Below are positions 14,889-63,750 of a DNA stretch of 64,000 nt, piece by piece (position 1 is the stretch's first letter; the number at the start of each line of letters is the position of its first letter). Origin of the DNA: Leucoraja erinacea (lineage: Eukaryota); assembly GCF_028641065.1 (NCBI RefSeq), contig NC_073416.1, positions 7,998,001-8,062,000 of the forward strand. The letters run 5' to 3'. Below the pieces are notes generated by a model that saw only the letters and a list, made by a program, of their open reading frames with translations, was not told the DNA's origin and did not search any database. A program made the position numbers and the translations under genes.

Positions 14889-15054
14889 TAAGAAGGAACT
14901 GCAGATGCTGGAAAAATCCAAAGGTAGACAAAAATGCTGGAGAAACTCAGCGGGTAAGGCAGCATCTATGGAGTAAAGGAATAGGTGACATTTCATCCTT
15001 CGCTCCATAGATGCTGCCTCACCCGCTGAGTTTCTCAAGCATTTTAGTCTACCT
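14889..15054. mobile_element. Penelope-like fold-back insertion
   Basis: Inverted arms; 14-bp flanking duplication ttggccataacatt (14875-14888 and 15055-15068). Confidence 0.8.
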
Positions 15055-15946: not shown

Positions 15947-16929
15947 CTGAAAGGCGGTGAGAATAAAAACTGGTAAAACAGCAAAAACAAGCTTATTTCT
16001 AAAGTGAACTATCTAGGTTCAAACCTGTAAGTTACTGAAGTCACATTTCTAATTGTGCTCATTTGAAAGGGCAGAGGATAATAGTGGTCAATGTACACAA
16101 TCACAAGCAGCAACTAACACCATGACAACTAATCTGTTGAAAGAAGGAACTGTAAATGCTGGTTTACACCATAGACATAAAGTGCTGGAGTAATTCAACA
16201 TCTCTTGAGGGTGATGTTTCGGGGCGGGAACCTTCTTCAGACTGAACGTACGGGGTGTGAGGGTTAAGAACAGGTGGCGAGAAAAGACCAGGTCCCATCG
16301 AGGCTTGTCACAAATCACCTCGTAGGAAGTTACTTGGCTACAATAATGACCGGCACACAAAATTGAGACACGATTGCCCTGACATTTAAAGATCTTTCTC
16401 TACCTGTACACCCTCTTTTATTGAAGATAGCAGCACTTGAATAATTGTCTGATGCACAGTGCACTAACTGAATATTTTACTCCATAAATCGCATATTTTT
16501 AAACGGGAATTAGGTTTAACTGTGATGCCTGTGTTTGTTCCCCCGTGGACTGCTAGCACAGACTCATTGCAGAAGCACAGCATTGAGACAAGCCCCCGGC
16601 ACTTCAGAGCCTCAGCTTCACGCACAAGTGCAGCTTGGCATTTGCTTTAGTCCTTTCCAAATTGAAGTGCATCTTATTAAATATTTACATCCCATCCCTG
16701 TAGACGCAAATAACAGAATTTTGCAATGTTAGTTTTGAAAATTAAAGCACCTATAACAGCTTCAAGACGCAATGTGACCAAAAACATCTTTCTTCAGAAG
16801 AGTTCTGCTCTGGAATTTAACTCGATTTAAGATGCACTTATTCGGCAGCTCCCAAGTATGTCATCAAGAAGCCAATAGGTACTCCAGCCCATGGGTCCTT
16901 TTTGTTGTTAAAGCAGCATCTGCAGTTCC

Positions 16930-17390
16930 TACCTGATCTCCCGGTTGCTAAACACTTTAATTCTCCTTCCCATTCCCACACTGACCTTCCTGTCCCAGGT
17001 CTCCTCCGTTGTCAGAGTGAGGCTAAACGCTAATTGGAGGTACAGCATCTCATATGTCGTTTGGCAGCTTACAGCCCAGTGGTATGAATGTTGATTTCTC
17101 CGACTTCAAGTAGCCCTGGTATCTCCTCTCTTTATTCCTCCCCCACCCAAGTCGCACCAGCTTCTCATTGTCACCCAACAAACCGCTAATAATGGCCTGT
17201 TTCCTTTGTCATCGTTACTTTTTTTGCATATCTTTCATTCATTGTTCTTTATCTCTCTACATCATCGTCTATATCTCTCGTTTACCTTATCCCTAACCAG
17301 TCTGAAGGGCTTCGACCCGAAACGTCACCCATTCCCTCTCTCCAGAGATGCTGCCTGTCCCGTTGAGTTACTCCAGCTTTGCGTCTATCT
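16930..17390 (+). mobile_element. Penelope-like element 3' fragment
   Basis: Degraded end of the GIY-YIG domain (PDLPVAKHFNSPSHSH...) followed by the terminal repeat. Confidence 0.75.
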
Positions 17391-17439
17391 GCTGTTCCTT
17401 GCTCCTACACCATCACTGTCTGCACACCAAATAACTCAC

Positions 17440-17711
17440 CCACATCCTTGTTCGCACGTCACGGGTCGCTTGGGATTGTGTTCGCAGTCGTTGAGGTGGG
17501 AGGTGAGCTGGTCGAGCCGCACCACAGCCGTGCAGCCGAAGCTGGCGTTGTCGCATGTGATCTGCAGTTTGGACAGCATGTTCCGCATGATGCGGGGAAC
17601 GGGCCGCAGGTGGGCTAGAGTGACGACACTGCGGTCCACCGGGCACGTCTGCTGTTGGGAGAACCATTGGGTGATACAGGCATTGCAAAATGCATGCTCA
17701 CAGTGTGGAGC
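17440..17711 (-). CDS. RNF41: RNF41 coding exon 2 (second half of the RING finger and the zinc-binding region)
   Basis: CAG|GCT acceptor; APHCEHAFCNACITQWFSQQQTCPVDR...CEHNPKRPVTCEQGCG; GG|GTGAGT donor; 272 nt. Confidence 0.97.
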
Positions 17712-17779
17712 CTGGGAGGAAGCAGAGGAGACAGCAAGTGAACCAACACTGCCTTATCATGTATCTATACACTATAAAC

Positions 17780-20710: not shown

Positions 20711-20733
20711 TAACTTGCCTTCTCTGTTCCAAA

Positions 20734-20906
20734 GTGGACAAAAGTGCTGGAGAAACTCAGCAGGTGCAGCAGCATCTATGGAATGAAGGAAATGGGCAAC
20801 GTTGCCTATTTCCTTCACTCCATAGATGCTGCTGCACCCACTGAGTTTCCCCAGCACTTTTGTCTACCTTCGATTTTCCAGCATCTGCAGTTCCTTCTTA
20901 AACAAA
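20734..20906. mobile_element. Penelope-like fold-back insertion
   Basis: Inverted arms; 14-bp duplication ttctctgttccaaa (20720-20733 and 20907-20920). Confidence 0.8.
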
Positions 20907-21504: not shown

Positions 21505-22850
21505 GGCTCATACTGCAACAGGCTCAGGACGTTCTGGTGGAAGAAAAACTGCAAGACGGTGCTTACTTACAATAAGTTTCACCACTTAGCATTAAAAAAA
21601 ATAATAATAACTTTCAAAAAGTGAGGTACATGAAACACATTAAAATCCTCACTCCTGGTATGTTAATGCATTGTCAGATTGAGAATTTTTTTTCTAAAAT
21701 AGGAAGACTTGGAGGAAATTTTTACTGCATTCAATAATAACGGAACTCAGTCTCATTTCACCCCAAATCTTAAGCCGTGAACCCCAAATCCAACTTTGCT
21801 TGTTCCCGTACCGTCCTGTTCCACATCACCCCAACTAAAGATTTGTGCTCCTGCTTCTCGTCAAGCTCAGCTCTGCTCCCAGTATCCAATAACCCGCACT
21901 TGCGCTGCATCTTACCATTTCCAAAGACTCTTTTAGTCAATGTTGTTTGCGTACAGGGCCCCTTTCAAAAGCAAAAACCTCTCAGTCACGTTGAAAGCTC
22001 AGCGACTCAGCGCTCATCAGCCCAAGCAAAACAGGGTGAAAGAGAGACAGCCAGCAGGACGCGGCTTTTATGCAGCACTCTGCACGACGGCAGCTACGTC
22101 GTCATTAAAAATAATGGATATGTCCTGGGCTGGAAGCTAGCCAAAGGCTGGAGAGGAATTCAAGCAAAGTAAACATCCCCTGCTCCTCACATCGCTGCAA
22201 GAGCCTCACTGCTCCTCAAATACCCTGCCTTCTGATGTGCTCATGTAGACTAAAGCAGGGGGAGCAACAAACGGGCAAATTCCACTGGCATCATCTCTCC
22301 ATAGGTCACAAAGATAACATAACCCCCATGCGTCATCGCCTCTATGGCTGAACTCGGGAAAGTCATTACAAGAGCATTAGTGGAACAGACAGATCACTTG
22401 CCTTATCCACACTCAGTACTCAAGTTGATTTGCACAACACAATGCTTTTTCTTTAAAAATTGTGTCATCAAGTCTTAAACAACAGCCACCGTACAATTTG
22501 AAACATCGGAACTATAGATAGACAGGGAGAGTTTCTCCTCCTTCAGAAACAAACTTTATAAGGGTATGGACGGGAGGATCAAACTTAACTGTGATGCGTA
22601 ACAAATGCCACGCAGTCTCCGTACCCTTTATATAGCAGCAAGAAGTTTTGTACTGTTGATGGGGTCAGTTTTCAAATGACACAAGACAGCCTGGTCACCA
22701 TCACCAATATATTGTTATCAGGCAGCTGAATCATCCTACCACAACCAGAGAGCAGTGCTGAACTACTATCTACCTCTTCGGTGGCCCTCGGATTATCCTT
22801 GATCGGACTTTGCTGGCTTTACCTTGCACTACACGTTATTCCCTTATCAT

Positions 22851-23090
22851 GGTAGACAAAAGTGCTGGAGAATCTCAGCGGGTGCAGCAGCATCTATGGA
22901 GCAAAGGAAATAGGCAACGTTTCAGGCCGAAACCCAGGGGTTTCGGCCCGAAACGTTGCCGATTTCCTTCAGGGTTTCAGCCCGAAACGTTGCCCATTTC
23001 CTTCACTTCATAGATGCTGCTGCATCCGCTGAGTTTCTCCAGCACTTTTGTCTACCTTCGATTTTCCAGCATCTGCAGTTCCTTCTTAAA
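22851..23090. mobile_element. Penelope-like fold-back insertion with an internal duplication
   Basis: Inverted arms of about 90 bp, with repeated gggtttc..cccgaaacgttgcc units. Confidence 0.8.
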
Positions 23091-23971: not shown

Positions 23972-24101
23972 NNNNNNNNNNNNNNNNNNNNNNNNNNNNN
24001 NNNNNNNNNNNNNNNNNNNNNNNNNNNNNNNNNNNNNNNNNNNNNNNNNNNNNNNNNNNNNNNNNNNNNNNNNNNNNNNNNNNNNNNNNNNNNNNNNNNN
24101 N
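23972..24101. other. Assembly gap (130 N)
   Basis: Run of n characters. Confidence 1.
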
Positions 24102-24566: not shown

Positions 24567-27500
24567 ATGTTTTGATAGAGATTTCCGTGCCTGGTGGAAA
24601 GTACCAACACAAATAGACGGAGAAAGAGTCCAAGAGTCAGATTATTTATAATCTGTTTAAACTTTTATATTTCTGCAATTTAGCATATTTTTCTCCCCAG
24701 TTTTTAAAGATATTGCACAACGTTTCCAGAACTCTCGGCTCCAAGTGACAAATTACCAACGTTCTTGTCAGAGACAAGACGCAAAGCTACAAGAATAGCC
24801 TGAGTGAATCATTCTGCTCATCCCACACACCACTCCCAATGTAAAAATGGGGTCAGGCCACAGGCAAATTGAACCTACAGACTATGACTCACCAGCCAAG
24901 GTGCAAACTGACGCAGAACAAGTGCGAGAGTGAAAGTGAACATTTGTACACTAGTCCAAACAGCAGTGTTGACTGCTCCACCATCGGTAAATAACCAGTG
25001 CCTTGTCTTTGCTTAGCGCACACTCCACTCACATCTGCCACATGGATTTATAAAAATATCTTTTACACTTGCATCTGCTTTCTCTACATTAACCTCAGGA
25101 AGTCCCGAATATTGATGCTCGTCAGTTACAGGCAGACGAGCTCTTTGCCTTCTCCTTATTTTGTGACATTTATTCTCTCCTTTTACCTGCCTCCTGCTTG
25201 TGTTTCCTGCAATGTGGCACTACCCCCAATTGACAGTCTGAAGAAGGGTCTCGACCAGAAGCATCATCCATGCCTTCTCCCCACAGATGCTGCTGCCTGT
25301 CCCTCCGAGTTACTCAAGGATTTTGTCTCTATCTTTGGTTTAAACCAGCACCTGCAATTCCTTTCTACACACCTCTCTCCAGCCTTCATCAGAGAGTCTT
25401 ACAGCACAGAAACAGGCCCTATGGCCCGACTTTCCCATGCCGATCAAGAAAGCCCATCTTAGCTAGTCCTATTTGCGCCTATCCCTTCAAACTTTTCCTA
25501 TCCATGTACCTTTCCAAAGAGTCTTTTCAATGCTGATATAGTACATGCCTCAACTATCACCTCTGGCAGCTCGTTCCATATGCCCACTGGTATATGATCA
25601 GTGAAAAGGTTGCCCCCTCAGGTACGTATTAAATCGTGCCTCTCCCACATAGACCATAGAACCATCATCATGCTTGTGAGATTTTGCCCAAATGTTTAAA
25701 AGTAATTTCACCCCATAAAAATGAAGAATCATTTTGGAAACACTCAGCTGGACAAACAGAACACTTTCCCTTTCCACAGTTGCAGCCTAATCTGCCAAGC
25801 ATTTGCTTTCCATTTTATGCCGTAAAAGGCAATTTTAAGTCCTTATGGAAAAAAAAGCAACCAAAAGGTGATACCTTCAAACCAGCACTGCAAACCTACA
25901 CATCCAAATCCCAATGTTTGTCCATTTTCAAAAGCTTGTTTTAAATCAGTAGGTACAGTTACACGTAGGCAATGCAAACAAGCTGGAACACGCACTTCCA
26001 TTATTCCGTTAACTTTCTAAAGAAATAATCTCCTTATCTACAAACCACCAACAAATTTGAACACTATTCCTTCAAGTGCTATCTCCAAATCTTTGATAAT
26101 GTCCCAGAAGTAAGCAAGGCTAGCAACACATTTCCAGTCTCTGAAAACTTGGGATGTTTATTCACTCCCCTTTCTCCCTCCCCCCAAACAAAATCAAGTT
26201 GAGTTTATTGTCACGTGTACCGAGGTACAGTGAAAAGCTTTTGCTGCGTGCTAACCATTTCCCAATTCTAACAGTTTCAACTCCAAGAATTTCCGAACTG
26301 TTATCGCCCTCACCCCACCGCCCCCACCCCAAACATCCCCTCAAAAAACAATTCAATGTTTCAAGCTTCAACAGCCCACTGTAATCCGCAAGAACCTTGA
26401 ACTGAACGCCCTGAATGCAGACTGAGAGATTCATCTTTAAAACAATCTGAAACCACACATACCTGATCACACTCAGGTTTCAAATTACCACCACCTCATG
26501 GCCCCTCCACCATTTACGAGGCACACATATCTGGAAGATCAGAGCCTTCATTTTCAATCCCCTGCACAAACTTTGTTACATATTCCGCAACTCCACTGTA
26601 GTCCAAATGTATCCATTGCCTTCTCTCACCTTGGCCATCTTCTCAGATTAAACTTAAAGCCTCGGGTCAATTGTATTCAGTCCAGTCATTCTGCCACCAT
26701 GTCCACCAACAAAAGTCTACCCAAAGGAATCTTACTTCCCAGTTCTTGAAGCTCAAGGCATGAGCAATGAGATGCAACACACTGACTACAGGTGCTGTCT
26801 ATACGGAGTTTCCCTGTGATCGTGTGGGTTTTCTCCAGGTGCTCCAGTTTCCCCCCACACCCCAAAGACGTGCATGTTTGGCTTCTGTAAAATTGCTCCT
26901 CGTGTGTAGGATAGAACTAGTGTACGGGTCTGCGCAGACTCGGTGGGCCGTAGGGCCTGCTTTCATGCTGCGTCTTTAAACTGCATTGGGATGGAATATT
27001 AAAATCTGGCAGCAACAAAAAGCACAGAGAATTCCAGCAGCAACTGAGCCATGGTAGGGCTGGAGTTAGTGATATAAAAATCAGGCAGCCCTGGGGATAG
27101 TGCAGTGAAGCTCATCGTAAATCAGATTAGAGGCTGCAGCACAGTTTAGTTTAGTCACTGGTAGATTATACCCATCAAGCTGGTTCTTTCTATTAACAAC
27201 AATCATCATTTTATGCATTATCCACTCCTTTTATTGTTCCAGTTCCACACAACAAGCTTTTTTCATTTAATATCTGTGCCAAATGATCAAAGCAGCTACA
27301 ATTGTGACTATTAAAACGTTTGGACAGATATATGGATAGGAAGGGTTTAAAGGGAAATGGGCCGAATCCAGGCAAATGGGACTGGGACGACCCCAGTATG
27401 CCAACTCGTCCAGCATGGACGAGGTGGGCCGAAGGGCTTGTTTCCATGCTGTAAGGCCCCCATGACTGTACAACCCATTGCCTAGATCCTTATGGACTTA

Positions 27501-27849: not shown

Positions 27850-28964
27850 ACGAACAGAGGACTTTCCCAGTTTTGAAATGGATATTCTGGATCCCCTCGA
27901 TGACGAAAAGCACAAATACAAACCAAACCACAGAATTACTTTTTGCCAAAATGAGATGAGAATTCAGTCAAATTACTCAACCAAAAAAAAACAAATAGAA
28001 AGCCAACTTGTATTGACCCAATTACTAATGACAAAACAGTGTGAAATACACCAGTTCAGGCAAGTCAGTATAATACTAGGTACACAAAAATGCTGGAGAA
28101 ACTCAGCAGGTGCAGCAGCATCTATGGAGCGAAGGAGATAGGCAACGTTTCATCCAGAAACGTTGCCCATCTCCTTCGCTCCATAAATGCTGCTGCACCC
28201 GCTGAGTTTCTCCAGCATTTGTGTACCTTCGATTTTCCAGCATCCACAGTTCCTTCTTAAACACTCAATACAATATTACTTCTTCTCTTAATGGATACAG
28301 TCATTTATTTGCCTGGAGCTAGAATTAAAAAAATATGAAATGTCAAATTTCTAAACATATTCAATGAGATTTTTATATTTAAATTCTAATCTCAGGCTTC
28401 CTGATACCAATGGCTAACACACAGGAGTTTTAAGCCTTTAAAAATTACACAGAAACTGAGAAATTATAACACAAAAAAAAGATTGTACACCATGGCACTT
28501 GCTTTCCCAAAACACAAGACAGGATAGCTAACACTGCGCTTGAAGATTACGAAATAGCTTTATCAGGTGGAGACAGAAGATGGAAAAGCTGCACTGGGGG
28601 GCAGGAAAAATCAGATAAGGCATTCCTTGGAAACTCTCCCCCCTCTCGCAGGCCAGCAGGAATGTGGAACTTGCTCCAACGGGTACCGTCTGGGGAAAGC
28701 AGAGCCGCATTTAAGGGGAAGCTGGATAAAAATTTGGAAGAAATAAGGAGACGAGGATGGCGTGGAGCATGAAGACTAGAACAGACCAGCTGAGCCAAAC
28801 AGCCTGCTACATATTCTATATATAATAGCCCTACATGTGGCACTTCCTCCAGCCGGACATGCAGCTTGGAACAAACTGCTTTTAGCAACAGCTGACCCAA
28901 AATTAAACACCTTTAGGTTAGAGGGCAGAGCTTGCACAAGACGAATCCACCATTTACAGCGAGC

Positions 28965-29272: not shown

Positions 29273-29869
29273 GTAGCAGTGTGCAATAATAACATTGGAC
29301 TCCCAACTTCAAACCAACCCTGGATAAACTCAGCGGGTGCAGCAGCATCTATGGAGTGAAGGAGATAGTCCATGTTTCGGGCCGAAACGTTGCCCATTTC
29401 CTTCGCTCCATAGATGCTGCTGCACCCGCTGAGCTTCTCCAGCATTTTTGTCTACCTTTGATTTTCCAGCATCTGCAGTTCCTCCTTAAGCATTAAAACC
29501 AACCCTTGCAAGATTAACAGGGAGCTTCCACGCCTTTCTCTAACAAATCACAGAATCACACAAATCACAAAAATTGCCTCTAATGACCACTGCTTTATCT
29601 TCATATAATTTTCTGCTGTCTCTGGCAGAAAGGGGCAAGCACACACAAAGAGTTTTAGTTATACAATTGGAGTATCCTGCCACTTCAATCGTGGTCGAGT
29701 CTTGAACTTGCCCAAAGTCTAACCTTCCAGATTAGACAAGGAACCTTTAAAGTTCTTTCTTAAAGTCCAGAGTCCACATCTGGCCCTCGATCTCTTCAAG
29801 AAACTCAATCAAATTCATCACAATCTCAGCCCCTTTCCTGCATTCTCAGCCCCCTTTTTTCACTCCTTA

Positions 29870-31015: not shown

Positions 31016-32240
31016 CCCTACACAAGGGCAGATTAGATATGCTGACTATCCCTAATCTGCTCTTAACTATCCAAAAGCAGGTAGATCATGTCTCTCAGAA
31101 TCCCCTCTTGAAACATTCCCAACACTAATGTTAGGCTTACCAGCCTGCAGTTCCCAGATCCTTTGCAGCGCTTCTTGTTTTTTAATTTCTATGTTTCTAG
31201 GTTTCTTACATAAAAAGGTGGAAGCTTGCAACTTGCTCGAAGAGTTTAAACAGGAAAGCAGTATTAGGAGGTGGGGTGTGTAGGAAGGAACTGCAGATGC
31301 CAGTTTAAACTGAAGATAGACACAAAATGCTGGAGCAACTCAGCGGGACAGGCAGCATCTCTGGAGAAAAGGAATGGGTGACATTTCAGATCTGAAGAGT
31401 CTCGACCCTAAACCTCGTCTCCAGAGATGCTGCCTGTCCTGCCAAGTTACACCAGCCTTTTATGTCTATTTTAGGAGGTAGGGTGACATGTAGGGGGTTT
31501 ACACACATATTAGGGTTAAGGTTAGGGATAATTGGGGCCGTAGTTAAGCTGCATTTGAAGGGAAAGGATTCAAGTGAAGCAATCCACTGACAAAATCAGC
31601 CACCACACAGGAAGGATAATCGAGTGGGAAGTTGAATAAAAATAAATCAAGGATTATGAAAACTTCCTGCAGCTTTGCAGAGACATTAACAGACCAAATA
31701 TGGAACCAAACTCTTAAACACAAGCAAATTTAATAAATGTTTAAAGAACCACCATATTTATAGCAACCTTCGCCTCACAAACTTCAACGTAGGGATAAAC
31801 TGCACAACACACATCTTGATCACATCCGCACGTTCATCAACACATGGATAATTATTCAGTTGATAAGCAAACAGGCATCTGCTCACAATCACATTATGAC
31901 TCACGTTCCTGCATAATCAGGAACGCATCGACAAGGGCAAGTATAAGACGCTAGTGCAGTCAGATCGGCCAAATTACAAAAGCTCGAGGCAAAAATGACC
32001 AAATACAAGGGAAGTGACGAAGGAATTACGTGACTTAATATTGATTAAGCAGTCAAACAAATCACTTGAAATAGGCTATTTGATTCTGGCAGAAATCAAT
32101 AATCACTATTAAACCAATTTAAATTACTGAAAACAAAATTAGCTGCTGTTGGGATATAGCCCCTCTCCACATTTAGCAAACAAATAATGGTCTTATAGTT
32201 ACAGTTATAATTTAAAAACACATAGTTAACTACAATAGTG

Positions 32241-32471
32241 CTGGAGAAAGTCAGCGGGTGCAGCAGCATCTATGGAGCAAAGGAAATAGGCAACGTTTCG
32301 GGACGAAACCCTTTCGGGTTTCGGCCCGAAACGTTGCCTATTTCCTTTCGGGTTTCGGGCCGAAACGTTACCTATTTCCTTCGCTCCATAGATGCTGTTG
32401 CACCCGCTGAGTTTCTCCAGCACTTTTGTCTACCTTCGATTTTCCAGCATCTGCAGTTCCTTCTTAAACTC
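32241..32471. mobile_element. Penelope-like fold-back insertion
   Basis: Inverted arms; 15-bp duplication ttaactacaatagtg (32226-32240 and 32472-32486). Confidence 0.8.
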
Positions 32472-35820: not shown

Positions 35821-35969
35821 TAGAGGAAAAATCTTGCACTTCACCCCTTTGACAGAACACAATCCAACCCAGTCCTCCACACATGCTGCCCGACCTGCTG
35901 GGTTTCTCCAGCACTCTTTATCCTCCACAGATGCTGCCCGACCTGCTGGGTTTCTCCAGCACTCTTTAG

Positions 35970-36420: not shown

Positions 36421-36574
36421 CCCTCCACAGATGCTGCCCGACTTGCTGGGTTTCTCCGGCACTCTTTATCCTCCACAGATGCTGCCCGACCTGTTGAGTT
36501 CCTTCAGAGGGCATGTCGGGCAGCATCTGTGGAGGACACAGAGTGCTGGAGGAACTCTGCAGGTCAGGCAGGAT

Positions 36575-43679: not shown

Positions 43680-45096
43680 CAGGTACAGAGAGGATTTACA
43701 AGGATGTTGCCAGGGCTCGAGGGTGTGAGCTACAGGGAGAGGTTGAGCAGGCTGGGTCTCTATTCCTTGGAACGCAGGAGGATGAGGGGTGATCTTATAG
43801 AGATGTCCAAAATCTTGAGAGGAATAGATCGGATGGAGTCTTTATGAAGGAACTGCAGATGCTGGAAAATCGAAGGTAGACAAAAGTGCTGGAGAAACTC
43901 AGCGGGTGCAGCAGCATCTATGGAGCGAAGGAAATAGGCAACGTTGCGGGCCGCAAACCCTTCTTTGGACCGATGTAGGGTGGGGGGGGCAGAAAAAAGG
44001 AGAAAGGAAGAGGAGGAGCCCAAGGGCTAGGGAGAGCTGAGAAGGGGAGGAGACAGCAAGGGCTACCGGAAATTGGAGAAGTCAATGTTTATGCCGCTAG
44101 GGTGCAAACTGCCCAAGATACACAGAGTCTCTTGCCCAGAGTAGGGGAATTGAGGACCAGAGGACATGGGTTTAAGGTGAAGGGGAAATTATTTAATAGG
44201 AATCTGAGGGGTAACATTTTCACACAGAGGGTGGTGAGTGTATGAACGAGCTGCCAGAGGAGGTAGTTGAGGCTGGGACTATCCCAACATTTAAGAAACA
44301 GTTAGACAGGTACATGGATAGAACAGGTTTGGAGGGATATGGACTAAACGTGGGAGGTGAGACTAGTGTAGCTGGGACATGTCGGCCGGTGTGGGCAAGT
44401 TGGGCCGAAGGGCCTGTTTCCATGCTGTATCACTCTGTGACTCTACCCAGGGGGGTAGCCGTGAGATCAGAGCGGGTGTCTGGTGGGTAGTTTAGGAAGA
44501 ATGTGGTGGTGGTGATGATGATGTGATGAGAAAATTTCCCATAAGACAAAACCTTATTGTGAGCAATTTTGAGCACCATATCTGAGGATGGATGTGCTGG
44601 CCCTGGAGAAGGTCCAGAGGAGATTTACGAGAATGATCCCAAGAATGAGTGGGTTAACATACGATGAGCGTTTGACTGCACTGGGCCTGTACTCACTGGA
44701 GTTTAGAAGACTGAGGAGGGACCTCATTGACACTTACAGAATAGTGAAAGGCCTGGATAGAGTGGACGTGGAGAGGATGTTTCCACTAGTGGGAGAGTCT
44801 AGGACTAGAAGTCACAGTCTCAGAATTAAAGGACGTTCCTTTGGGAAGGAGATGAGGAGAAATTTTAGTCATGGGGTGATGAATATGTGGAATTCTCTGC
44901 CACAGACAGATGTGGAGGCCAAGTCAGTGGATATATTTAGGGCAGAGATAGATAGATTCTTGTTTAAGAAGGAACTATAGATGCTGGAAAATTGAAGGTA
45001 GACAAAAATGCTGGAGAAACTCAGCGGGTGCAGCAGCATTTATGGAGCAAAGGAAATAGGCAACGTTTCAGGCCGAAACCCTTCTTCAGACTGATG

Positions 45097-45138
<42 letters not shown>

Positions 45139-45790
45139 GGAGGAGAAAGGAAGAGGAGGAGCCCGAGGGCTGAGGAAGAGCTGAGAAGGGGAGGAGACAG
45201 CAAGGGCTACCAGAAATTGGAGATGATTGTTGATTAGTACGCGTGTCAGAGGTTATGGGGAGAAGGCAGGAGAATGGGGTTAGGAGGGAGAGATAGATCA
45301 GCCATGATCTATCTCTCTATCTAGAAGATTGAGGGGGGATCTTATAGAAACTTACAACATTCTTAAGGGGTTGGACAGGCTAGATGCAGGAAGATTGTTC
45401 CCGATGTTGGGGAAGTCCAGAACAAGGGGTCACAGTTTAAGGATAAGGGGGAAGTCTTTTAGGACCGAGATGAGAAAAAAAAAATTCACACAGAGAGTGG
45501 TGAATTTGTGGAATTCTCTGCCACAGAAGGTAGTTGAGGCCGCAGTTCATTGGCTATATTTAAGAGGGAGTTAGATGCGGCCCTTGTGGCTAAAGGGATC
45601 AGGGGGTATGGAGAGAAGGCAGGTACAGGATACTGAGTTGGATGATCAGCCATGATCATATTGAATGGCGAATGGTGCAGGCTCGAAGGGCCGAATGGCC
45701 TACTGCACCTATTTTCTATGTTTCCATGATTGAATGGCGGAGTAGACTTGATGGGCCGAATGGCCTAATTCTGCTCCTATCACTTCTGCC
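43680..45790. mobile_element. Nested cluster of CR1/HER1 3' fragments (+) with Penelope 3' ends (-) inserted
   Basis: ORF2 C-terminal peptides (LEKVQRRFTRMIP...LGLYSLEFRRLR.DLI) interrupted at about 43845-44120 and 44965-45225 by Penelope terminal repeats. Confidence 0.85.
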
Positions 45791-46339: not shown

Positions 46340-48770
46340 CAAGTGATAGGAGCAGCATTATGCCATTCGGCCCATCAAGTCTACTCCACCATTCAATCAA
46401 TGCTGATCTATCTCTCCCTCCTAACCCCATTCTCCCGCCTTCTCCCCATAACCTTTGACACCCGTATTAATCAACAATTTATCTATCTCTGCCTTAAATA
46501 TACCATTGACTTGGCCTCCACAGCATTCTGTGGCAAAGAATCCCACAGATTCACCATCCTCTGGCTAAAGAAATTCCTCCTCATCTCCTTCCTAAAAGAA
46601 CGTCCTTTAATTCTGAGGCTGTGACCTCTAGTCCTAGACTCTCCCACTAGTGGAAACATCCTCTCCACATCCACTCTATCCAGGCCTTTTACTATACAGT
46701 ATGTTTTAATGAGGTCCCCCCTCATTCTTCTAAACTCCAGTGAGTACATGCCCAGTGCCGTCAAACGCTCATCGTACGTTAACCCACTCATTCCTGGGAT
46801 CATTCTTGTAAACCTCCCCTGGACTCTCTCCAGAGCCAGCACATCCTTCCTCAGATACGGGGCGCAAAATTGCTCACAATATTCCAAATGTGGCCTGACC
46901 AGCGCCTTATTGAGCCTCAGCATTACATCTCTGTTTTTGTGTACAAGCCCTCTCCAAATAAATACTCTCAAAATAGTCAGATACAGCATGGAAGCAGGCC
47001 CATCGGCCCATCGCATACATCCCAACTATCGGCCCCCTTGTGCGGGTCAGACAGCACCCTTGGAGGATATGGATAGGCAACGTTTCAGGTCGGGTCTGAA
47101 GAAGGGCAGTAGCGGTAGAGTTGCTGCCTCACAGCACCAGAGACCCGGGTTCGGTCCTGACTACGGGTGCTGTATGTGCGGAGTTTGTACGTTTTCCCCG
47201 TGACCTGCGTGGGTTTTCTCCAAGATCTTCGGTTTCCTCCCACACTCCAAAGACCTACAGGTGTGTCTGAAGAAGGGTCTCGACCCGAAGGTCAGCCTCT
47301 CCGGAGATGCTGCATGTCTGTCCCGCTGAGTTACTCCAGCACTTTGTACCTGTCCACGTTCTCCACAGAGATGCTGCATGTCTGACCCGCTGAGTTACTC
47401 CAGCACTTTGTATCTTTAGTTGTCTTTTTTCCTCTGTAGCTCTCTCCTGATTACTTGTCTTTGCCAAATGATTTCAACCAACAACCAACTGAGACCCAAA
47501 CAGTGCGCAAAGCTCCAGGTGTGGTCTCACCTGGGCCCTGTGTTATTGCAGCAGGGTTTGTGTTTATGTCGCAGATATAAAGCCCAGAAAAAAAAACTTG
47601 GCCCTCCTGAATTGCTTATTACACCTCCATGTTAGTTTTCATAAGATCATAAGTGTGAGGAGTAGAATTAGGCCATTCGGCCCATCAAGTCTTCTCCGCC
47701 ATTCAATCATGTCTGATCTATCTCTCCCTCCTAACCCCATTCTCCTGCCTTCTCCCCATAACCTCTGACACCCGCACTAATCAACAATCTATCTATCTCT
47801 GCCTTAAAAATATCCACTGACTTGTGGCCTCCACCACCGTCTGTGGCAAGGAATTCCACAGATTCACCACCCTCTGACTAAATAAGTTCCTCCTCATCTT
47901 CGCCCTTTAATTCTGAGGCTATGACCACTGGTCCTAGACTCTCCCACCAGTGGAAACATCCTCTCCACATTCACTCGATGCCTTTCATTATTCTGTATGT
48001 TTCAACAAAGTCCCCCCCCTCAACCTTCTAAACTCCAGCGAGTACAGGCCCAGTGCCGTCAAACACTCATATGCTAACCCACTTATTCCTGGAATAATTC
48101 TTGTAAACCTCCTCTGGACCCTCTCCAGAGCCAGCACATCCTTCCTCAGATATGGGGCCCACATTTGCTCACAATACTCCAAATGCGGCCTGACCAGCGC
48201 CTAATAGAGCCTCAGCATTACATGTTCCTGCCTTCTCTCCATATCCCTTGACTCCGCTATCTTTAAGAGCTCTATCCAACTCTCTCTTGAAAGCATCCAG
48301 AGAATTGGCCTCCACTGCACTCTGTGACAGAGAATTCCACAGACTCACAACTCTCTGGGTGAAAAAGGTTTTCCTCATCTCCGTTCTAAATGGTGACCCC
48401 TTATTCTTACACTGTGACCCCTGATTCTGAAGGGGAACATTTCTCCTGCATTAAGCCTGTCCAATCCCTTATGAATTTTATATGTTTCTATAAGATCCCC
48501 TCATCCTTCTAAACTCCAGAGTGTACAAGCCCAGCCGTTCCATTCCCTCAGCATATGACAGTCCCGCCATCCCGGGAATTAACCTGGAGAACCTACGCTG
48601 GGCTCCCTCAATAGCAAGAATGTCCTTCCTCAAATAAGGAGACCAAAACTGCACACAATACTCCAGGTATGGTCTCACCAGGGCCCTGTACAACTGCAGA
48701 GTCTTTGCTCCTAGACTCAAATCCTCTCGCTATGAAGGCCAACATGCCATTAGCTTTCTTCACTGCCGGC
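46340..48770 (-). mobile_element. Cluster of CR1/HER1 LINE fragments with SINE and Penelope pieces
   Basis: [37 protein letters not shown]... peptides and shared 3' UTRs. Confidence 0.85.
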
Positions 48771-49134
48771 TGTACCAGCACCAAGCCACTGAGTTCAACA
48801 GCAAATATGCCAAGCAATGAATACTGGGCTTCGTAGAGAAGCCCTTAAGACAAAGGTTTATTGTACTTTATTTGGGAAATTTTAGAGACATATCCTGCAT
48901 AAGGCAGTCAGACAAGTGTTATCATCGCCACCCAGTGGTGATAGTCTGCTGCTGCGGGATTGTAAAACCTCACTAAATCTGCCAGTTTTGGGGAATCAAA
49001 ATCACAATAATACTTTATTAGCCAAGTATGTTTTGCAACATACGAGGAATTCTATGTGTCATACAGTCATACCAATAAAAAGCAACAGGACACACAAAAT
49101 ACATTTTAACATAAATATATTAAAATATACATGT

Positions 49135-49162
49135 CTGAAGAAGGGTCTCGACCCGAAACGTC
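49135..49162 (+). ncRNA. Minimal hammerhead-ribozyme-like core in a Penelope terminal repeat
   Basis: CTGAAGA-A-GGGTC-TC-GACCC-GAAA-CGTC; stem I weak. Confidence 0.55.
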
Positions 49163-49389
49163 ACCTATTTCCTTCATACCACAGATGCTGCCTCACCCGC
49201 TGAGTTTCTCCAGTATTTTTGTCTCCCTTCGATTTATCCAGCATCTGCAGTTCTTTCTTAAACTAAACATCCACCACAGTGACTCCACCACTTTCCTCAC
49301 TGTGATGGAAGGCGAACATAAAGTTCAATGTCTCCTTTCTTTGTCCTCCAGCAATCGGGGGCCTCTAACCTTCCGTTGACTGGACGATC

Positions 49390-53670: not shown

Positions 53671-54705
53671 TGCCTGCGCTTGGTCCATATCCCTCCGAAC
53701 CTGTCCTATCCATGTACTTGTCTAACTGCTTCTTAAACATTGGGATAGTCCCAGCCTCAACTCTCTGCCTCAGAGGGCGGTGGAGGCCGGTTCTCTGGAT
53801 GCTTTCAAGAGAGAGCTAGATAGGGCTCTTAAAGATAGCGGAGTCAAGGGATATGGGGAGAAGGCAGGAATGGGGTGCTGATTGGCGATGATCAGCCATG
53901 ATCACATTGAATGGCGGTGCTGGCTCGCAGGGCTGAATGGCCTCCTCCTACACCTATTATCTGTTGTCTATTGTCTATAGTACCTCCTCCGGCAGCTCGT
54001 TCCATACACCCACCAACCTTTGTGTGGAAAAGTTACCCCTCAGATTCCTATTAAATCTTTTCCCCTTCACCTGAAACCTATGTCCTCTAGTCCTCGATTC
54101 CCCTACTCTGGGCAAGAGACTCTCTACTGTGCGTCTACCCGATCTATTCCTCTCATGATTTTATACACCTCTATAAGATCGCCCCTCATCCTCCTGCGCT
54201 CTAGAGAATACTTCAAAGATTGGTGACTGGGAGGGAAATGAGAGTAATAGATCGTGGACAGGTACAAAGTGCTGGAGTAACTCAGTGGGTCAGACATGCA
54301 GCATCTGACCTTAGACAATCTGATAGGGATCCCATGTTATGTTTAGGCTGCACTAGAGTGTAAGAGAAGGATCTTTGCTGCAATACAGTGGTGAGTTGGT
54401 TAATGGCCTTCCCATCCCATCAGCTGACAACAAGCCTCCTGTTTTAATATGAAGCACATGTGTGGAATCATTGCTGGATCCACATTTGCTGCACAGATAT
54501 TTCTCCTCGATATTTTTCAACAGTGCGTGCGTGCACAGTAAGTGGTTTATTTTACTTTACTTTAGAGATACAGCGCGGCAACAGGCCCTTCGGCCCACCG
54601 AGTCCATGCCGACCAGCGATCGCCCCGTACACTAGCACTATCCTACACACACAAGGGATAATTTGCCATTTTTACCAGTTAATTAACCTACGAACCTAAG
54701 AAGGT

Positions 54706-55439: not shown

Positions 55440-55575
55440 GAGAGGGAGAGAGAGAGAGGGGGAGAGAGGGAGAGAGAGAGAGGGGGAGAGAGAGAGGGGG
55501 GGGAGGGAGAGAGAGAGAGAGGGGAGAGAGATGGGGCAGAGAGAGAGGGGGGGAGAGATAGAGGTGAGAGAGAGA
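55440..55575. repeat. GA-rich polypurine microsatellite
   Basis: Imperfect (GA)n/(GGGA)n tract. Confidence 0.9.
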
Positions 55576-55936
55576 CAGCATCTCTGGAGAGAAGGAATGG
55601 GTGTCGTTTCGGGTCGAGACCCTTCTTCAGACTGATGTCAGGGGAGGGGGGGGCAGAGATAGAATGTAGTCGGAGACAGTAAGACTGGTGGGAGAACTGG
55701 GAATGGGGAGGGGATGGAGAGAGAGAGAGAGGGAAAGCAAGGGCTGTCTGAAATTGGAGAAGTCAATGTTCATACCGCTGGGGTGTAAACTACCCAAGCA
55801 AAATATGAGGTGCTGCTCTACCAATTTGCGCTGGGCCTCACTCTGGCCATGGAGGAGGCCCAGGACAGAAAGGTCGGATTGGGAATGGGAATGGGAATGG
55901 GAGGGGGAGTTGAAGTGCCGAGCCACCGGGAGATCA
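55576..55936 (-). mobile_element. Penelope-like element 3' fragment
   Basis: HFNSPSHS...DLSVLGLLHGQSEAQRKLVEQHLIFCLGSLHPSGMNIDFSNFR plus the terminal repeat. Confidence 0.85.
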
Positions 55937-56039
55937 GGGTGGCTCGGATGGAGCCCGGGTCTCTGGCGCCGTGAGGCAGCAACTCTACCACTGCGCCACT
56001 GTGTTTATAACCTGGCGTGAGTGTGTAAGATCCTTGTCG

Positions 56040-58760: not shown

Positions 58761-59520
58761 TTCATTGTCCGAAGGTACACAAAAATGCTGGAGAAACTCA
58801 GCGGGTGAGGCAGCATCTATGGAGCGAAGGAAATAGGCAACGTTTCGGGCCTGAAACCCTTCTTCAGACTGGATCAGGGACACATGACAATAAACTCTCT
58901 TGTAGTTTTTGCACAATCTGCAGGCATTGCCACTTTCATTTCACTCGCTTCTTGTATGTGTATGTGACAAATAAAGTTGATGTCTCGATTCAGACGGGGG
59001 GAAGGGGGGGGTGGGGGGGCTGTGGCAATATGCTCTTTGCTTTTTTCACCAGGGTTTATAACACTGTTAATAACAAAATGCTTTGTTCGACTTTAACTGG
59101 GGAACCACTGGCAAACAATAGTCTTTGTACAACACTAAATCCCTGTTATAATCACTGATTGCAAACTTCAAAGGTCACTGATTGCAAGCAATCAGCTCAG
59201 CACTTAATACAGGGATGGTTTTGGCAGCTTGGTACTTCCTGGTCTCTTTGAGAGGAGTTGAGTATAAGAGCAAAGAGGTCCTTCTGCAGTTGTACAGGGC
59301 CCTAGTGAGACCACACCTGGAGTATTGTGTGCAGTTTTGTCCTGTTGGCCTTTATAACAAGAGGAGTTGAGTATGGGAGCAAAGGAGGTCCTTCTGCAGT
59401 TGTACAGGGCCCCGGTGAGACCACACCTGGAGTATTGTGTGCAGTTTTGGCCTCCATAACAAGAGGTGCAGCATTTTGTGTCTTTTTATTTTGTCTTTGA
59501 AGGGGTGACGGTGTGGAAGT

Positions 59521-59930
59521 ATGTGGAGTGGAATCTTGCCTCTATTCCTGGCCGGGCTGCAGCTCCTCTGTACAGAGCGTGTCCGCTACTGCCAAGCCCA
59601 GAGGCTGCCTGTGGATAAGAACGAGACTCTGGTCCAGAGCGCGATGAGGGAACAGCGGTACTACCTGCTCCGTCTGTTCGGGCACTACGGGGACAACGGC
59701 AAGCTGACCTTCGAGGGCCTACGCAGGCTGCTGGTCAACCTGGGACTGGGCGCAGTGCAGGTGGTGGAAATCGAACACGAAGATCTCGGGCACGCACACG
59801 TCTCGCACTTGGACGTTCTCGACCTGCAGGAGAAAGGACATGTACACAGCCACGTTCTAGACGATCACCATATCGACCAACCCACCAGCAAGGTGGAGGC
59901 TAACTCTGCAACCAACCCCTCCACACTGAG
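59521..59930 (+). CDS. SLC39A5: SLC39A5 (ZIP5) coding exon 1: signal peptide and N-terminal ectodomain
   Basis: Acceptor at 59502/59503; hydrophobic N-terminus; EQRYYLLRLFGHYGDNGKLTFEGLRRLLVNLGLG LIV-1 motif; AG|GTGAGG donor; synteny with NABP2. Confidence 0.9.
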
Positions 59931-59994
59931 GTGAGGACAAATACACCAAGCACAGCTTCTCAGGGCAGGTGTTGCCGGGACTAGAGGGCAAAAA

Positions 59995-60450
59995 CAGGAA
60001 GGCAGATTATTATCTAAATGGTGTCAAGTTGGGAAAGGGGAAGTACAACGGGATCTGGGGGTCCTTGTTCATCAGTCTATGAAAGTAAGCATGCAGGTAC
60101 AGCAGGCAGTGAAGAAAGCCAATGCCATGTTGGCCTTTATAACAAGAGGAGTTGAGTATAGAAGCAAAGAGGTCCTTCTGCAGTTGTACAGAGCCCTAGT
60201 GAGACCACACCTGGAGTATTGTGTGCAGTTTTGGTCCCCTAATTTGAGGAAGGACATTCTTGCTATTGAGGGAGCCCAGCACAGGTTCACCAGGTTAATT
60301 CCCAGAGAGAGTTAGATAGAGCTCTTAAAGATAGCGGAGTCAGGGGATGTGGGGAGAAGGCTGGAACGGGGTACTGATTGGGGATGATCAGCTGTGATTA
60401 CATTGAATGGCGGTGCTGGCTCGAATGGCCTCCTCCTGCACCTGTTGACT
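59995..60450 (+). mobile_element. CR1/HER1 LINE fragment
   Basis: [49 protein letters not shown]. Confidence 0.9.
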
Positions 60451-60854
60451 ATTGTTTATTGTTAGGCCCATATCCCTCCAAACCTGTCCTATCCATGTAC
60501 CAGTCTAACTGCTTCTTAAACGATGGGATAGTCCCAGCCTCAACTACCTCCTCCGGCAGCTCATTCCATACACCCACCACCCTGTACATTTACACCAAGC
60601 CCCTCAGATTGACATCCATCCTGAATGCGGGTGCTGTCTGTACGGAGTTTGCATGTTCTCCCCGTGACCTGCGTGGTTTTTCTCCGAGATCTTTGGTTTC
60701 CTCCCGCACTCCAAAGACGCGCGGGTCTGCAGGCCGAATGGCTTTGGTATAATTGCAAATTGTCCCTAGTGTGTGTAGGATAGTGTTAGTGTGCGGGGAT
60801 CGCTGGAGAATCCATGTAGAAGTTGGCTGTTAAATAATCTCCAATTTCTCATCG

Positions 60855-61510
60855 TTTAAGCTCCCTCCGTGACTCCCTAGTCAATTTGTCCCTTCCAACT
60901 CCAACTACCCTTTCCCTTGCAACCACAAGAAATGCTACACTTGTCGCTTTACCTCCATCCAAGGACCCAAGCCGTCTTTCCAGGTGCGACAGAGGTTCAC
61001 CTGCACCTCCTCCAACCTCATCTATTGCATCCGCTGCCCTAGATGTCAGCTGCTCTACATCGGTGAGACCAAGCGTAGGCTTGGCGATCGTTTTTCCCAA
61101 CACCTCCGCTCCGATCGCAATAACCAACCTGATCTCCCGGTGGCTCAGCACTTCAACTCCCCCTCCCATTCCCAATCCGACCTTTCTGTCCTGGGCCTCC
61201 TCCATGGCCAGAGTGAGGACCACCGCTAATTGGAGGAGCAGCACCTCATATTTCGCTTGGGCAGTTTGTACCCCAGCGGTATGAACATTGACTTCTCTAA
61301 TTTCAGGTAGTCCCTGCTTTCCCCTCCCCTTCCCAGCTCTCCCTCAGCCCACTGTCTCCGCCTCTTCCTTTCTTCTTCCCGCCCCCCCCCCCACCCCCCA
61401 CATCAGTCTGAAGAAGGGTCTTGACCCGAAACGTCATCTATTTCCTTCACTCCGTAGATGCTGCCTGTCCCGCTGAGTTTCTCCAGCATTTTTGTCCACC
61501 TTCGATTTCT
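60855..61510 (+). mobile_element. Penelope-like (Neptune-type) element 3' end: GIY-YIG endonuclease remnant plus terminal repeat
   Basis: RFTCTSSNLIYCIRCPRCQLLYIGETKRRLGDRF.QHLRS...VAQHFN...E...I..LGS..PSGMN, with an in-frame stop. Confidence 0.9.
61408..61435 (+). ncRNA. Minimal hammerhead-ribozyme-like core in a Penelope terminal repeat
   Basis: CTGAAGA-A-GGGTC-TT-GACCC-GAAA-CGTC, about 100 nt downstream of the GIY-YIG stop codon. Confidence 0.6.
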
Positions 61511-61524
61511 CTTCCATTGTTCAG

Positions 61525-61723
61525 CCACAGATTGGAGCAGAGAGCCAAGACCAAGAGAGGACTTCCTGCTTTGGGAAGAGACGATGACTTGTGGAACCGT
61601 AGGCCCAGCGGCTCCAGAGTCGGGAGGTTGGCACGTCAGAGTGTCGATGAAACAAAGTCCACCCTCACATTGGCCAAGGACATCACCTTCAACCACTCCA
61701 AATTCAACCACTGGCACGGAAAT
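61525..61723 (+). CDS. SLC39A5: SLC39A5 coding exon 2
   Basis: ttcag| acceptor (in-frame alternative at 61530); HRLEQRAKTKR...ITFNHSKFNHWHGN; AAT|GTGAGC donor; phases match both neighbouring exons. Confidence 0.8.
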
Positions 61724-61854: not shown

Positions 61855-62635
61855 TTGCAGCAGGCAGTGAAGAAAGCCAATGGCATGTTGGCCTTTATAA
61901 CAAGAGGAGTTGAGTATAGGAGCAAAGAGGTCCTTCTGTAGTTGTACAGGGCCCTAGTGAGACCACACCTGGAGTATTGTGTGCAGTGTTGGCCTGTTGG
62001 CCTTCATAACAAGAGGAGTCGAGTATAGGAGCAAAGAGATCCTTCCGCAGGTGTATAGGGGCCCTAGTGAGACCACACCTTGAGTATTGTGTGCAGATTT
62101 GGTCCCCTAATTTGAGGAAGGACATTCTTGCTATTGAGGGAGCTCAGCGTAGGTTCACCAGGTTAAATCCCGGGATGGCGGGACTGTCATATGCTGAGAG
62201 AATGGAGCGGCTGGGCTTGTGTACTCTGGAGTTTAGAAGGATGAGAGGGAATCCCATTGAAACGTATATGATTGTTAAGGGCTAGGACACGCTAGAGGCA
62301 GGAAACATGTTCCCGATGTTGGGGGAGTCCAGAACCAGGGGCCACACACAGTTTAAGAATTAGGAGTAAGTCATTTAGAACGGAGATGAGGAAACACTTT
62401 TTCTCACAGAGAGTGGTGAGTCTGTGGAATTCTCTACCTCGGAGGGCGGTGGAGGCCGGTTCTCTCGATGCTTTCAAGAGAGAGCTAGATAGGGCTCTTA
62501 ATAATAGTGGAGTCGGGGGATATGGGGAGAAGGCAGGAACGGGGTACTGATTGGGGATGATCAGCCATGATCACATTGAATGGCGTTGCTGGCTCAAAGA
62601 GCCAAATGGCCGACTCCTGCACCTGTTGTCTATTG
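61855..62635 (+). mobile_element. CR1/HER1 LINE 3' fragment with an internal duplication
   Basis: [32 protein letters not shown]...; the segment around 61890-62100 is duplicated. Confidence 0.85.
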
Positions 62636-62871
62636 CGAACCGAGCGGAGGTGTTGGGCGAAGTGATCGCCAAGCCTGCGCTTGGTCTCACCGATGTAGAG
62701 CAGCTGACATCTAGAGCAGCGGATGCAACAGACGAGGTTGGAGGAGGTGCTGGTGAACCTCTGCCGCACCTGGAAAGACTGCTTGGGTCCTTGGATGGAG
62801 TCGAGGGGGGGAGGAAGTGTAATGTTATTATGAGTTTAATTCTGAGGAGATATTTTTTGTTTGTGCAACAG

Positions 62872-63046
62872 TGTTTGAATGTAAGCCAGCTTCTGGTGAA
62901 CTTTGGATTGAGTTCTGTGAACGAGATTACTCTGCAACAGTTCACCTACATCTGTCCAGCATTGTTGTATCAGATTGACAGCCGTGTCTGTATCTACCAT
63001 CACGACTGGCTCCAGAAACAGCAGACGAATGATCACTCCACATCAG
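62872..63046 (+). CDS. SLC39A5: SLC39A5 coding exon 3 (cysteine-flanked core with the CPALLYQ motif); the gene continues beyond the window
   Basis: acag| acceptor; CLNVSQLLVNFGLSSVNEITLQQFTYICPALLYQIDSRVC; CAG|GTACGA donor; 175 nt. Confidence 0.93.
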
Positions 63047-63339
63047 GTACGATCTCCCGGTGGCTCAGCACTTCAACTCCCCCGCCCATTCCCAATCCCA
63101 ATCCCAACGGAGATGAGCAAAAACTCTTCCACCCAGAGAGTTGTGAGTCTGTGGAATTCTCTGCCGCAGAGGGCGGTGGAGGCTAATTCACTGGATGCTT
63201 TCAAGAGAGAGCTAGATCGGGCTCTTAAAAATAGCGGAGTATGGGGAGAAGGGAGGAATTGGGGATGATCAGCCATGATCACATTGAATGGCGGTGCTGG
63301 CTAGAAGGGCCGAATGGCCTACTCCTGTACCTATTGTCG

Positions 63340-63750
63340 ATTTACCTCCCCCCTTGACTCCATTCAAGGACCCAAGCAGTCGTTCCAGGTGCGACAGAGG
63401 TTCACCTGCACCTCCTCCAACCTCATTTATTGCATCCGCTGCTCTAGATGTCAGCTGATCTACATCAGTGAGACCAAGCGTAGGCTTGGCGATCGCTTCA
63501 CTGAACACCTCCGCTCGGTTTGCAAATAACCAACCTGATCTCCTGGTGGCTCAACACTTCAACTGCCCCTCCCATTCCCAATCCAACCTTTCTGTCCTGG
63601 GCCTCCTCCATGGCCAGAGTGAACACCACCGTAAATTGGAGGAGCAGCACCTAATATTTCGCTTGGGCAGTTTGCACCCCAGCGGCATGAACATGGACTT
63701 CTCTAATTTCAGGTAGTCCTTACTATCCCCCTCGTTCCCCCTCCCCCTCC
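63340..63750 (+). mobile_element. Penelope-like GIY-YIG 3' fragment
   Basis: IQGPKQSFQVRQRFTCTSSNLIYCIRCSRCQLIYISETKRRLGDRFTEHLRS...GMNMDFSNFR, frameshifted. Confidence 0.88.

Follow-up and report, generated by a model that had tools for sequence, protein, structure and literature searches.

A truncated Penelope-like element with a predicted minimal type I hammerhead in an intron of a skate zinc transporter gene

The window, a 64,000-nucleotide stretch of the Leucoraja erinacea genome (NC_073416.1) to which all coordinates refer, contains forward-strand exons of a ZIP5/ZIP10-like zinc transporter gene at 59521–59930 (97% identity to protein P0024), 61525–61723 and 62872–63046 (both by protein alignment). 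The host protein shares 97% identity with a protein of Amblyraja radiata named ZIP10-like and 74% with one of Rhinoraja named ZIP5. Upstream of this gene are exons for a USP8-interacting domain and a RING domain at 9211–9681 (-) and 17436–17753 (-), which likely belong to RNF41, which we take to be the human neighbour of SLC39A5, in agreement with the arrangement here. LINE-like coding fragments and SINE-like repeats, presumably CR1 and V-SINE, are interleaved with pieces of a Penelope-like element at 59250–59450, 59980–60330 and 61860–62560. Further endonuclease fragments are present at 62625–62800 (-), 63358–63749 (+) and 63051–63098, the last starting 4 nt past the donor of the host exon that ends at 63046. 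An assembly gap of 130 N occupies 23972–24101.

From the three exon positions it follows that the focal copy of the element lies in sense within the intron 59931–61524. It consists of the 3' end of a 5'-truncated open reading frame specifying a linker and a GIY-YIG domain (60855–61310, +; Pfam, alignment and tblastn), a pyrimidine-rich 3' untranslated stretch (61311–61405, +), a minimal type I hammerhead (61406–61437, +; pattern, covariation and covariance model) and the remainder of the pseudo-LTR (61438–61507, +; profile and copy alignment), which ends before most of the roughly 30-nt tail. Tracts similar to the pyrimidine-rich one are seen in the copies at 44117, 45223 and 55942. The reading frame is truncated at about 60855 and broken by an in-frame stop at 61227–61229; a second in-frame stop, TAG at 61308–61310, marks the point where homology to intact relatives ends, and the motif starts 98 nt behind it. 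Within the hammerhead, CUGAAGA occupies 61408–61414 and is followed by an extra A (61415), a stem II of GGGU/ACCC with loop CUUG, GAAA (61428–61431) and the palindrome ACGU (61431–61434), with cleavage predicted after C 61435. Stem I is formed by U-A and G-U, most matching contigs of read run X1 having C at 61437. The predicted cut site is 90 nt from the exon at 61525, so that the sense orientation and distance given in the preliminary description, where the exon was assigned to SLC39A5, both hold. The copy ends about 17 nt before the host acceptor (61523–61524), and loose contig ends at 61508 run on into the tail in other genomes. A weak candidate for a target-site duplication of this insertion (60840–60849 and 61504–61513; score 7.5 against a control maximum of 8.5) sits in the pyrimidine tract of the host acceptor.

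The open reading frame piece at 60873–61226 matches the GIY-YIG family (PF01541; E-value 2.4e-5, 25 bits against a cut-off of 22.6), in keeping with the GIY-YIG end noticed earlier in front of the motif, and a tblastn search with P0003 covers 60888–61307 at 61%. The domain is preceded by a cysteine linker, C-X4-C-X2-C, of which C16, C21 and C24 are kept in at least 90% of 20 aligned sequences; residues Y62, G64, E65 and T66 of GIY-YIG are invariant in this alignment. All 23 longer homologues detected are 43–84% identical, the named ones coming from skates, sharks and a sea urchin. Five homologues were scanned, and a GIY-YIG match was obtained in all five and a reverse transcriptase (RVT_1) in four, one of these above cut-off. 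Reverse transcriptase matches were also present in 28 of 79 related loci; within the 64-kb window none belonging to the focal endonuclease family was detected. A CX2-5CxxC linker is named as a mark of Neptune and Nematis (Craig et al., PMC8557442), and by its predicted architecture the element is an EN+ Penelope-like element of the Neptune/Nematis type. Neptune appears the likely choice of the two, on the basis of the linker and one published ribozyme match (locus L022) rather than a reverse transcriptase tree. The C-terminal GIY-YIG domain and the linker are shared with Neptune EN+ elements such as that of Acropora digitifera (BACK01051917, PMC4209133; traits in PMC8557442), as are inverted 5'-truncated copies and one-sided tails (PMC8557442). 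In contrast to those elements, no reverse transcriptase of this family lies in the window, and the inserts are extremely short (about 90–240 nt).

Copies of the terminal-repeat family are numerous and shared among organisms: 14 read runs carrying eight organism labels each contain at least 61% of the words sampled from 60855–61520, and 152,592 contigs of run X1 match 61000–61540. Runs X19–X21 held a small share of the words of 60855–61520 or none, and run X22 (20 partial reads) was left out. Viral contigs gave no match to the DNA pattern, and none of their 113 candidate stretches encodes a relative.

The hammerhead motif was sought in three ways. The pattern CTGAWGAA-N8-20-GAAAC matches seven times in the 64-kb window (13544–13568 -, 16216–16240 -, 45065–45089 -, 49135–49159 +, 55606–55630 -, 58842–58867 - and 61408–61432 +) against 0.07 ± 0.26 expected (100 shuffles, maximum 1), and all motif coordinates of the preliminary description hold. 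A chance origin is ruled out by these shuffles together with the shuffles and opposite strands of related loci described below. A covariance model built from 24 motifs, six of them window copies, gave 22 matches in the window up to E 1 and recovered every copy named before, including the decayed ones near 10466, 16215, 17302, 25238 and 47267. A profile of the terminal repeat revealed 50 fragments in 64 kb, far above the earlier count of copies, very short fragments escaping detection; most of them are without part or all of the core, and the CUGA box is kept in only 14. An Rfam scan of the window returned no hammerhead among 39 matches up to E 10. The miRNA-like matches of that scan fell under their own gathering scores, mostly coincided with head-to-head pairs or other repeats, and were rejected.

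Four of the 14 core-bearing copies (61408, 49135, 58867 and 45089) combine a 2-bp stem I with an intact core, an intact stem II and the ACGU palindrome. Thus, among the six main copies first described, four are intact and two are defective, 55630 having GAC in place of GUC at the cut triplet and 13568 having ACAU in place of ACGU. ACAU is found also in 16240, and the remaining non-intact copies have damage in the core. Pairing in stem II is kept, with covariation, as had been claimed, but as 4 bp with a 4-nt loop (CUUG, CUCG or UUCG) rather than 5 bp with a 2-nt loop, copy 58867 having 5 bp and a 3-nt loop. Likewise N7 can be U as well as A, but U occurs in a single one of the 14 core-bearing copies (13568). 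Stem I of the skate copies comprises 2 bp, the third pair being an A-C mismatch. Intact copies from each of the two skate subfamilies retain the core, the NUH triplet (C or U at position 17) and pair 1.1–2.1 (U-A or U-G).

Besides the focal copy, an intact core at 49135–49162, with the cut triplet GUC and a tail, lies in a copy spanning 49133–49262 (+; profile, covariance model) that starts 2 nt before C3, and another, with the cut triplet GUU, at 58839–58867 in a copy spanning 58767–58871 (-; profile, covariance model) that starts about 4 nt before C3. The copy at 44963–45223 (-; profile) comprises an ORF end, the pyrimidine tract, an intact core (45062–45089) with the cut triplet GUU, and a tail. 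Copy alignment defines an endonuclease end with a core (55603–55630) broken at U16.1 at 55568–55942 (-), and, together with the profile, an endonuclease end, decayed core and tail at 43841–44117 (-). A copy of another subfamily (16928–17397, +) comprises an endonuclease end and a longer untranslated stretch, and its core has lost 3 nt (17302). Short decayed copies include 10463–10553 (+), which starts just before the core, and the similar 16141–16245 (-), 25236–25369 (+) and 47265–47419 (+), all found with the profile and the covariance model. At 13317–13571 (-; profile, copy alignment) there is a partial tandem of three units, the first with a core (N7 = U, stem III broken) and the second and third starting at about G12, lacking the CUGA box. 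Tandem units at 13.4, 22.9, 32.3, 35.9, 36.5 and 47.3 kb are in fact all missing this box, either after the first unit or altogether, and no two intact cores stand in tandem anywhere in the window. Those at 35872–35966 and 36421–36574 are 47-nt units of the downstream repeat with no hammerhead, from a more distant subfamily. Copies 47265–47419 (+) and 54241–54306 (-), which belong to one subfamily, have a common junction, the inner 3' end followed by a start at the predicted cut site (1-nt ambiguity). Target-site duplications were sought around 14 single (non-inverted) copies and none scored past the control maximum (best 8.0 against 8.5); weak, properly placed candidates exist at 49.2 (8.0), 61.2 (7.5) and 45.1 kb (7.0). 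The window copies are truncated relics, and the word system, used of them in the preliminary description, overstates what is present.

Ten loci in the window are head-to-head pairs, and in all ten the tail is on exactly one arm. Target-site duplications of 13–15 bp scored above all 90 mismatched controls in five pairs, and a sixth pair equals the control maximum. The pair at 20730–20902 is joined at the AACGTT palindrome of stem III and has a one-arm tail and a 14-bp duplication; that at 14887–15058 also has a one-arm tail and a 14-bp duplication. At 32232–32468 the arms begin at stem II, an internal partial repeat of 33–35 nt is present and the duplication is 13 bp long. The pair at 22850–23090 has this same layout (inverted arm from stem II, partial unit of 33–35 nt from stem II, full arm) and no clear duplication; the two may go back to a template jump that recurred or to one source copy in common. 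Further pairs are located at 4279–4423, 11616–11808, 28072–28261, 29319–29489 and 31279–31474. The inverted junctions at 20.8 kb and 29.4 kb coincide with the motif's own palindromes. In the eight pairs with usable overlap, compared to see if both arms derive from one RNA, the arms are 82–96% alike, and an arm's own partner is often not its best match. The remaining pair, 1706–1864, has a 15-bp duplication (1 mismatch) and arms that differ at the subfamily-marking cut site, GUU-G versus GUC-A, a single case which hints that two different RNAs may have been copied in one insertion. A tRNA (1924–2005; RF00005, 62.5 bits) is found about 60 nt from this pair.

Relatives of the element were taken from 79 metagenome-contig loci with endonucleases 42–60% identical to the skate protein, the best 80 of 451 matches being kept. 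With a strict descriptor the motif was found behind the endonuclease at 13 of 67 loci with enough sequence, against one on the opposite strand and none in 20 shuffles. When up to one mismatch was allowed, it was found at 34 of the 70 related loci with at least 250 nt downstream, against two on the opposite strand and none in each of 10 shuffles; the other 36 had no motif at this setting. Among the strict matches the helix III palindrome is ACGU in 12 of 13 and AUGU in the other.

In 24 aligned motifs, 92.9% of the cells pair, against at most 44.6% in slid-partner controls. Two-sided changes occur in six of seven pairs, namely all three of stem I and three of the four of stem II, 95.8% of the cells of stem II being paired. 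The covariation score was reached by none of 500 shuffles, related rows inflating such counts, and the covariation check proposed earlier therefore came out in favour of stems I and II. Stem I is spelled many different ways among the aligned rows, and its pairing lay outside the search criteria. G10.1–C11.1 is G-C in 21 of 24 rows. Sixteen representatives (14 loci chosen by eye as distinct, plus the two skate subfamilies) gave a mean identity of 0.97 over eleven core positions, against 0.43 and 0.46 in the 40-nt flanks, a difference that agrees with the prediction made for the core but is partly circular since the representatives were picked by the motif. The same comparison is uninformative on the window copies because these decay and the downstream repeat is kept equally well, the core being no better preserved than that repeat. 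In helix I, pair 1 is formed in 15 and pair 2 in 14 of the 16 representatives, and stem I is 3–6 bp long in 11 of the 14 invertebrate-type representatives versus 2 bp in the skate copies. Locus L022, 50% identical in its endonuclease, has the core, both stems and the near flanks printed for the Neptune element of Acropora digitifera in Fig. S3 of PMC4209133, and so carries a published Neptune ribozyme.

Minimal type I hammerheads of Penelope-like elements were described in 2014 by Cervera and De la Pena (PMC4209133), whose consensus CUGANGAH includes the residue that stands after position 9 and before 10.1 as a conserved trait, and in whose Fig. S3 the motifs of Culex, four Drosophila species and Oikopleura have helices I of 2 bp. 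The skate motif shares with these CUGANGAH, G10.1–C11.1, GAAA, a palindromic 15.2–16.2 with no loop III and NUH, as well as the location in terminal repeats, the many solitary copies and the opposite-strand pairs (PMC4209133). The preliminary description had taken two features as atypical. The extra A after A9 is not, as it is present in 16 of 16 representatives and listed as a conserved trait; the 2-bp stem I was seen correctly, but helices of this length, like the extra A, are published for these ribozymes (PMC4209133). Some differences from the same source are nevertheless evident. The 56 motifs of Fig. S3 include none from a cartilaginous fish. The skate stem I is among the shortest in the published range and, being built of U-A or U-G plus G-C, weaker than the 2-bp examples made of G-C only, and its 5' flank is rich in pyrimidines and in C where the published one is rich in U (PMC4209133). 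A literature search confined to sources other than subscription papers and Repbase found no paper describing the skate Penelope hammerhead family.

As predicted from sequence, the motif is a minimal type I hammerhead, situated in the pseudo-LTR of a Penelope-like element that bears an endonuclease. Its location, its retention in distant relatives and the covariation show this, and this part of the preliminary description stands. The kind being already known (PMC4209133), the finding adds only a host group and a weak-stem example. Our main reading, to which we would give a probability of about 85%, is that the focal copy is the truncated 3' end of a likely Neptune-type element whose terminal repeat carries this known ribozyme motif, predicted to cut slowly after GUC or GUU and only with help, likely from a second copy paired through ACGU or from an element protein. 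Dimer dependence of the skate motif is proposed by analogy with the literature, where the monomer is described as giving no cleavage and dimers and trimers low cleavage (PMC4209133); dimer cleavage is also treated by Lunse et al., as summarised in a review (PMC6765202). Folding gave no support for an unaided dimer. Six folds had z-scores of -1.08 to +0.94, so that the fold is not favoured on its own, a longer stem I was sought by folding and not found, and in unconstrained two-strand cofolding two copies paired through stem II instead of ACGU; these results are weak evidence, since energy models do not score a hammerhead core.

The one Penelope-like element reconstituted in vitro is Poseidon PAc of Anolis carolinensis (Frangieh et al. 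2024, PMC11167929). There the ribozyme depends on the protein for cutting in vitro, insertion does not require cleavage, each of the two target strands is cut and extended, and an optional tail is explained by two reverse transcription start sites. Like PAc, the skate element has a hammerhead in the pseudo-LTR and two 3' ends about 30 nt apart, and extension of both strands fits the head-to-head pairs of the window (PMC11167929). The ORF of PAc starts at stem II (PMC11167929), and unlike the skate element PAc belongs to another clade, the Zn linker being named for Neptune and Nematis (PMC8557442). Inverted pairs with 8–10 bp duplications have been described for Adineta (PMC3846280) and the layout in general in PMC8557442, where the role of hammerheads in Penelope-like elements is called unclear.

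According to the main reading, an intact element elsewhere would have made the window copies by target-primed reverse transcription, starting at two sites about 30 nt apart, the end of the tail and the inner end. The template would have been mostly uncut RNA, with copying mostly halting in or just before the ribozyme, and the genomic copies, the intronic 61408 included, would probably be passive relics with no partner ribozyme in cis.

The fragment ends bear on this scheme. About 34 of the 50 fragments begin in the interval from 5 nt before C3 to 2 nt beyond the cut site, with six starting further upstream and 10 further downstream; three starts were corrected by hand and two apparent starts dropped as the copy continues upstream, and the ends are not independent because arms and tandem units share events. 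An excess of starts at the predicted cut site itself was sought, and three of 50 (11737, 18893 and 47348) were found there, which is about the average density of one per base; no clear trace of cut RNA is therefore seen. In eight of the 14 core-bearing copies the start lies 1–5 nt before C3, a rate 35 times the per-base rate further upstream (one upstream copy omitted) and, by our arithmetic, only three to four times that inside the motif. Another genome shows loose ends of low agreement at 61403, in 1014 contigs, and joints, tandem or inverted, at 61402–61406; to some extent this may reflect how subfamilies differ in the pyrimidine tract. This upstream boundary before C3 could mark where the RNA starts, or where copying stalls at the C-rich tract. 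The TCAGT found at it resembles what we take to be the initiator consensus. The boundary coincides also with a possible splice acceptor, and GT at 61307 and AG at 61405–61406 could be the bounds of an intron; among the 15 joints listed (226 more exist), from runs whose RNA labels are guesses, no exact splice joint for 61307–61406 was found. An intron of Drosophila virilis ends at helix I (PMC4209133).

In a further, tentative reading, rather doubtful as a whole, the hammerhead region and not the cut site shapes insertion of the skate element. The copied RNA would start 2–5 nt before C3 and therefore have room for only a 2–3 bp stem I; both strands of a staggered cut of about 14 nt would prime cDNAs at the two reverse transcription start sites, and the cDNAs would come to a halt within the ribozyme, whose palindromes (AACGTT of stem III and the arms of stem II) would join them. 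Were this so, the abundant head-to-head stubs would document in vivo that a Penelope protein dimer carries out twin priming, and the ribozyme motif would act as the joining signal.

The rival that survives best, possible but in our view somewhat unlikely, is that the skate hammerhead is catalytically dead, active elements included, and persists as a structural signal, that is, a protein-binding site, a reverse transcriptase stop or a set of cDNA-joining palindromes. It would account for a 2-bp stem I of weak pairs, the lack of a favoured fold, fragment starts that fall within the motif span with no excess at the cut site, the inverted junctions at 20.8 and 29.4 kb on motif palindromes and the dispensability of cleavage for insertion in vitro (PMC11167929). 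However, core, NUH triplet and pair 1.1–2.1 are all maintained in the intact copies of both skate subfamilies, published motifs of the same kind include 2-bp helices I (PMC4209133) and the anole ribozyme does cleave with its protein (PMC11167929).

Less probable still, and unlikely in our estimation, is that the short copies are a non-autonomous family, retrozyme- or SINE-like, copied as a unit by Penelope enzymes. Retrozymes derive from Penelope-like element repeats (preprint 10.64898/2026.07.22.740005), and like the non-LTR retrozymes of that preprint the window copies include ORF-less terminal-repeat pieces with a type I hammerhead; the eight starts just before C3, the single compound layout of the 22.9 and 32.3 kb loci and a summed contig depth in run X1 that is higher over the motif than upstream all point the same way. 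The preprint found retrozymes in the one chondrichthyan that it sampled, which may include the skate family. Against this, the window has no head-to-tail array with a complete hammerhead in each unit, which is the criterion used in the preprint (10.64898/2026.07.22.740005), junctions differ from pair to pair, and the sequence is continuous with that of endonuclease-bearing copies. Adoption of the 61408 copy by the host, regulating the zinc transporter transcript through intron cutting or splice signals, is suggested by its sense orientation, intact core and end close to the acceptor and is nonetheless very improbable, as the copy is one of 50 fragments in 64 kb, departs from the family majority at 61437 so as to leave G-U in stem I, has no partner core in the intron, and a 97% identical skate protein joins the two exons directly.

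Dozens of copies per 64 kb amount to a large sample of insertion ends genome-wide. Mapping these ends across a genome could show if cut RNA ever serves as a template and if priming takes place on both target strands, for which this window alone is too small.

Several minor features of the relatives deserve mention. CCGA replaces CUGA (U4C), with the stems intact, at L001:2394, L010:774, L019:790, L023:2437, L053:921, L058:1468, L067:1337, L070:1530, L075:1881 and L076:1725, and this looks like a family trait in the group of L001, L023, L053 and L058. An inverted hammerhead is also present upstream of the endonuclease at L043:2297 (-) and L047:633 (-), which may be compared with canonical inverted 5' repeats. 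Lastly, judged from translation, the C-terminus of P0005, a predicted zebra shark protein (...SLMKGLRPKRQ...), resembles a hammerhead read in frame, the corresponding reading in the window being LKKGLDPKRH.
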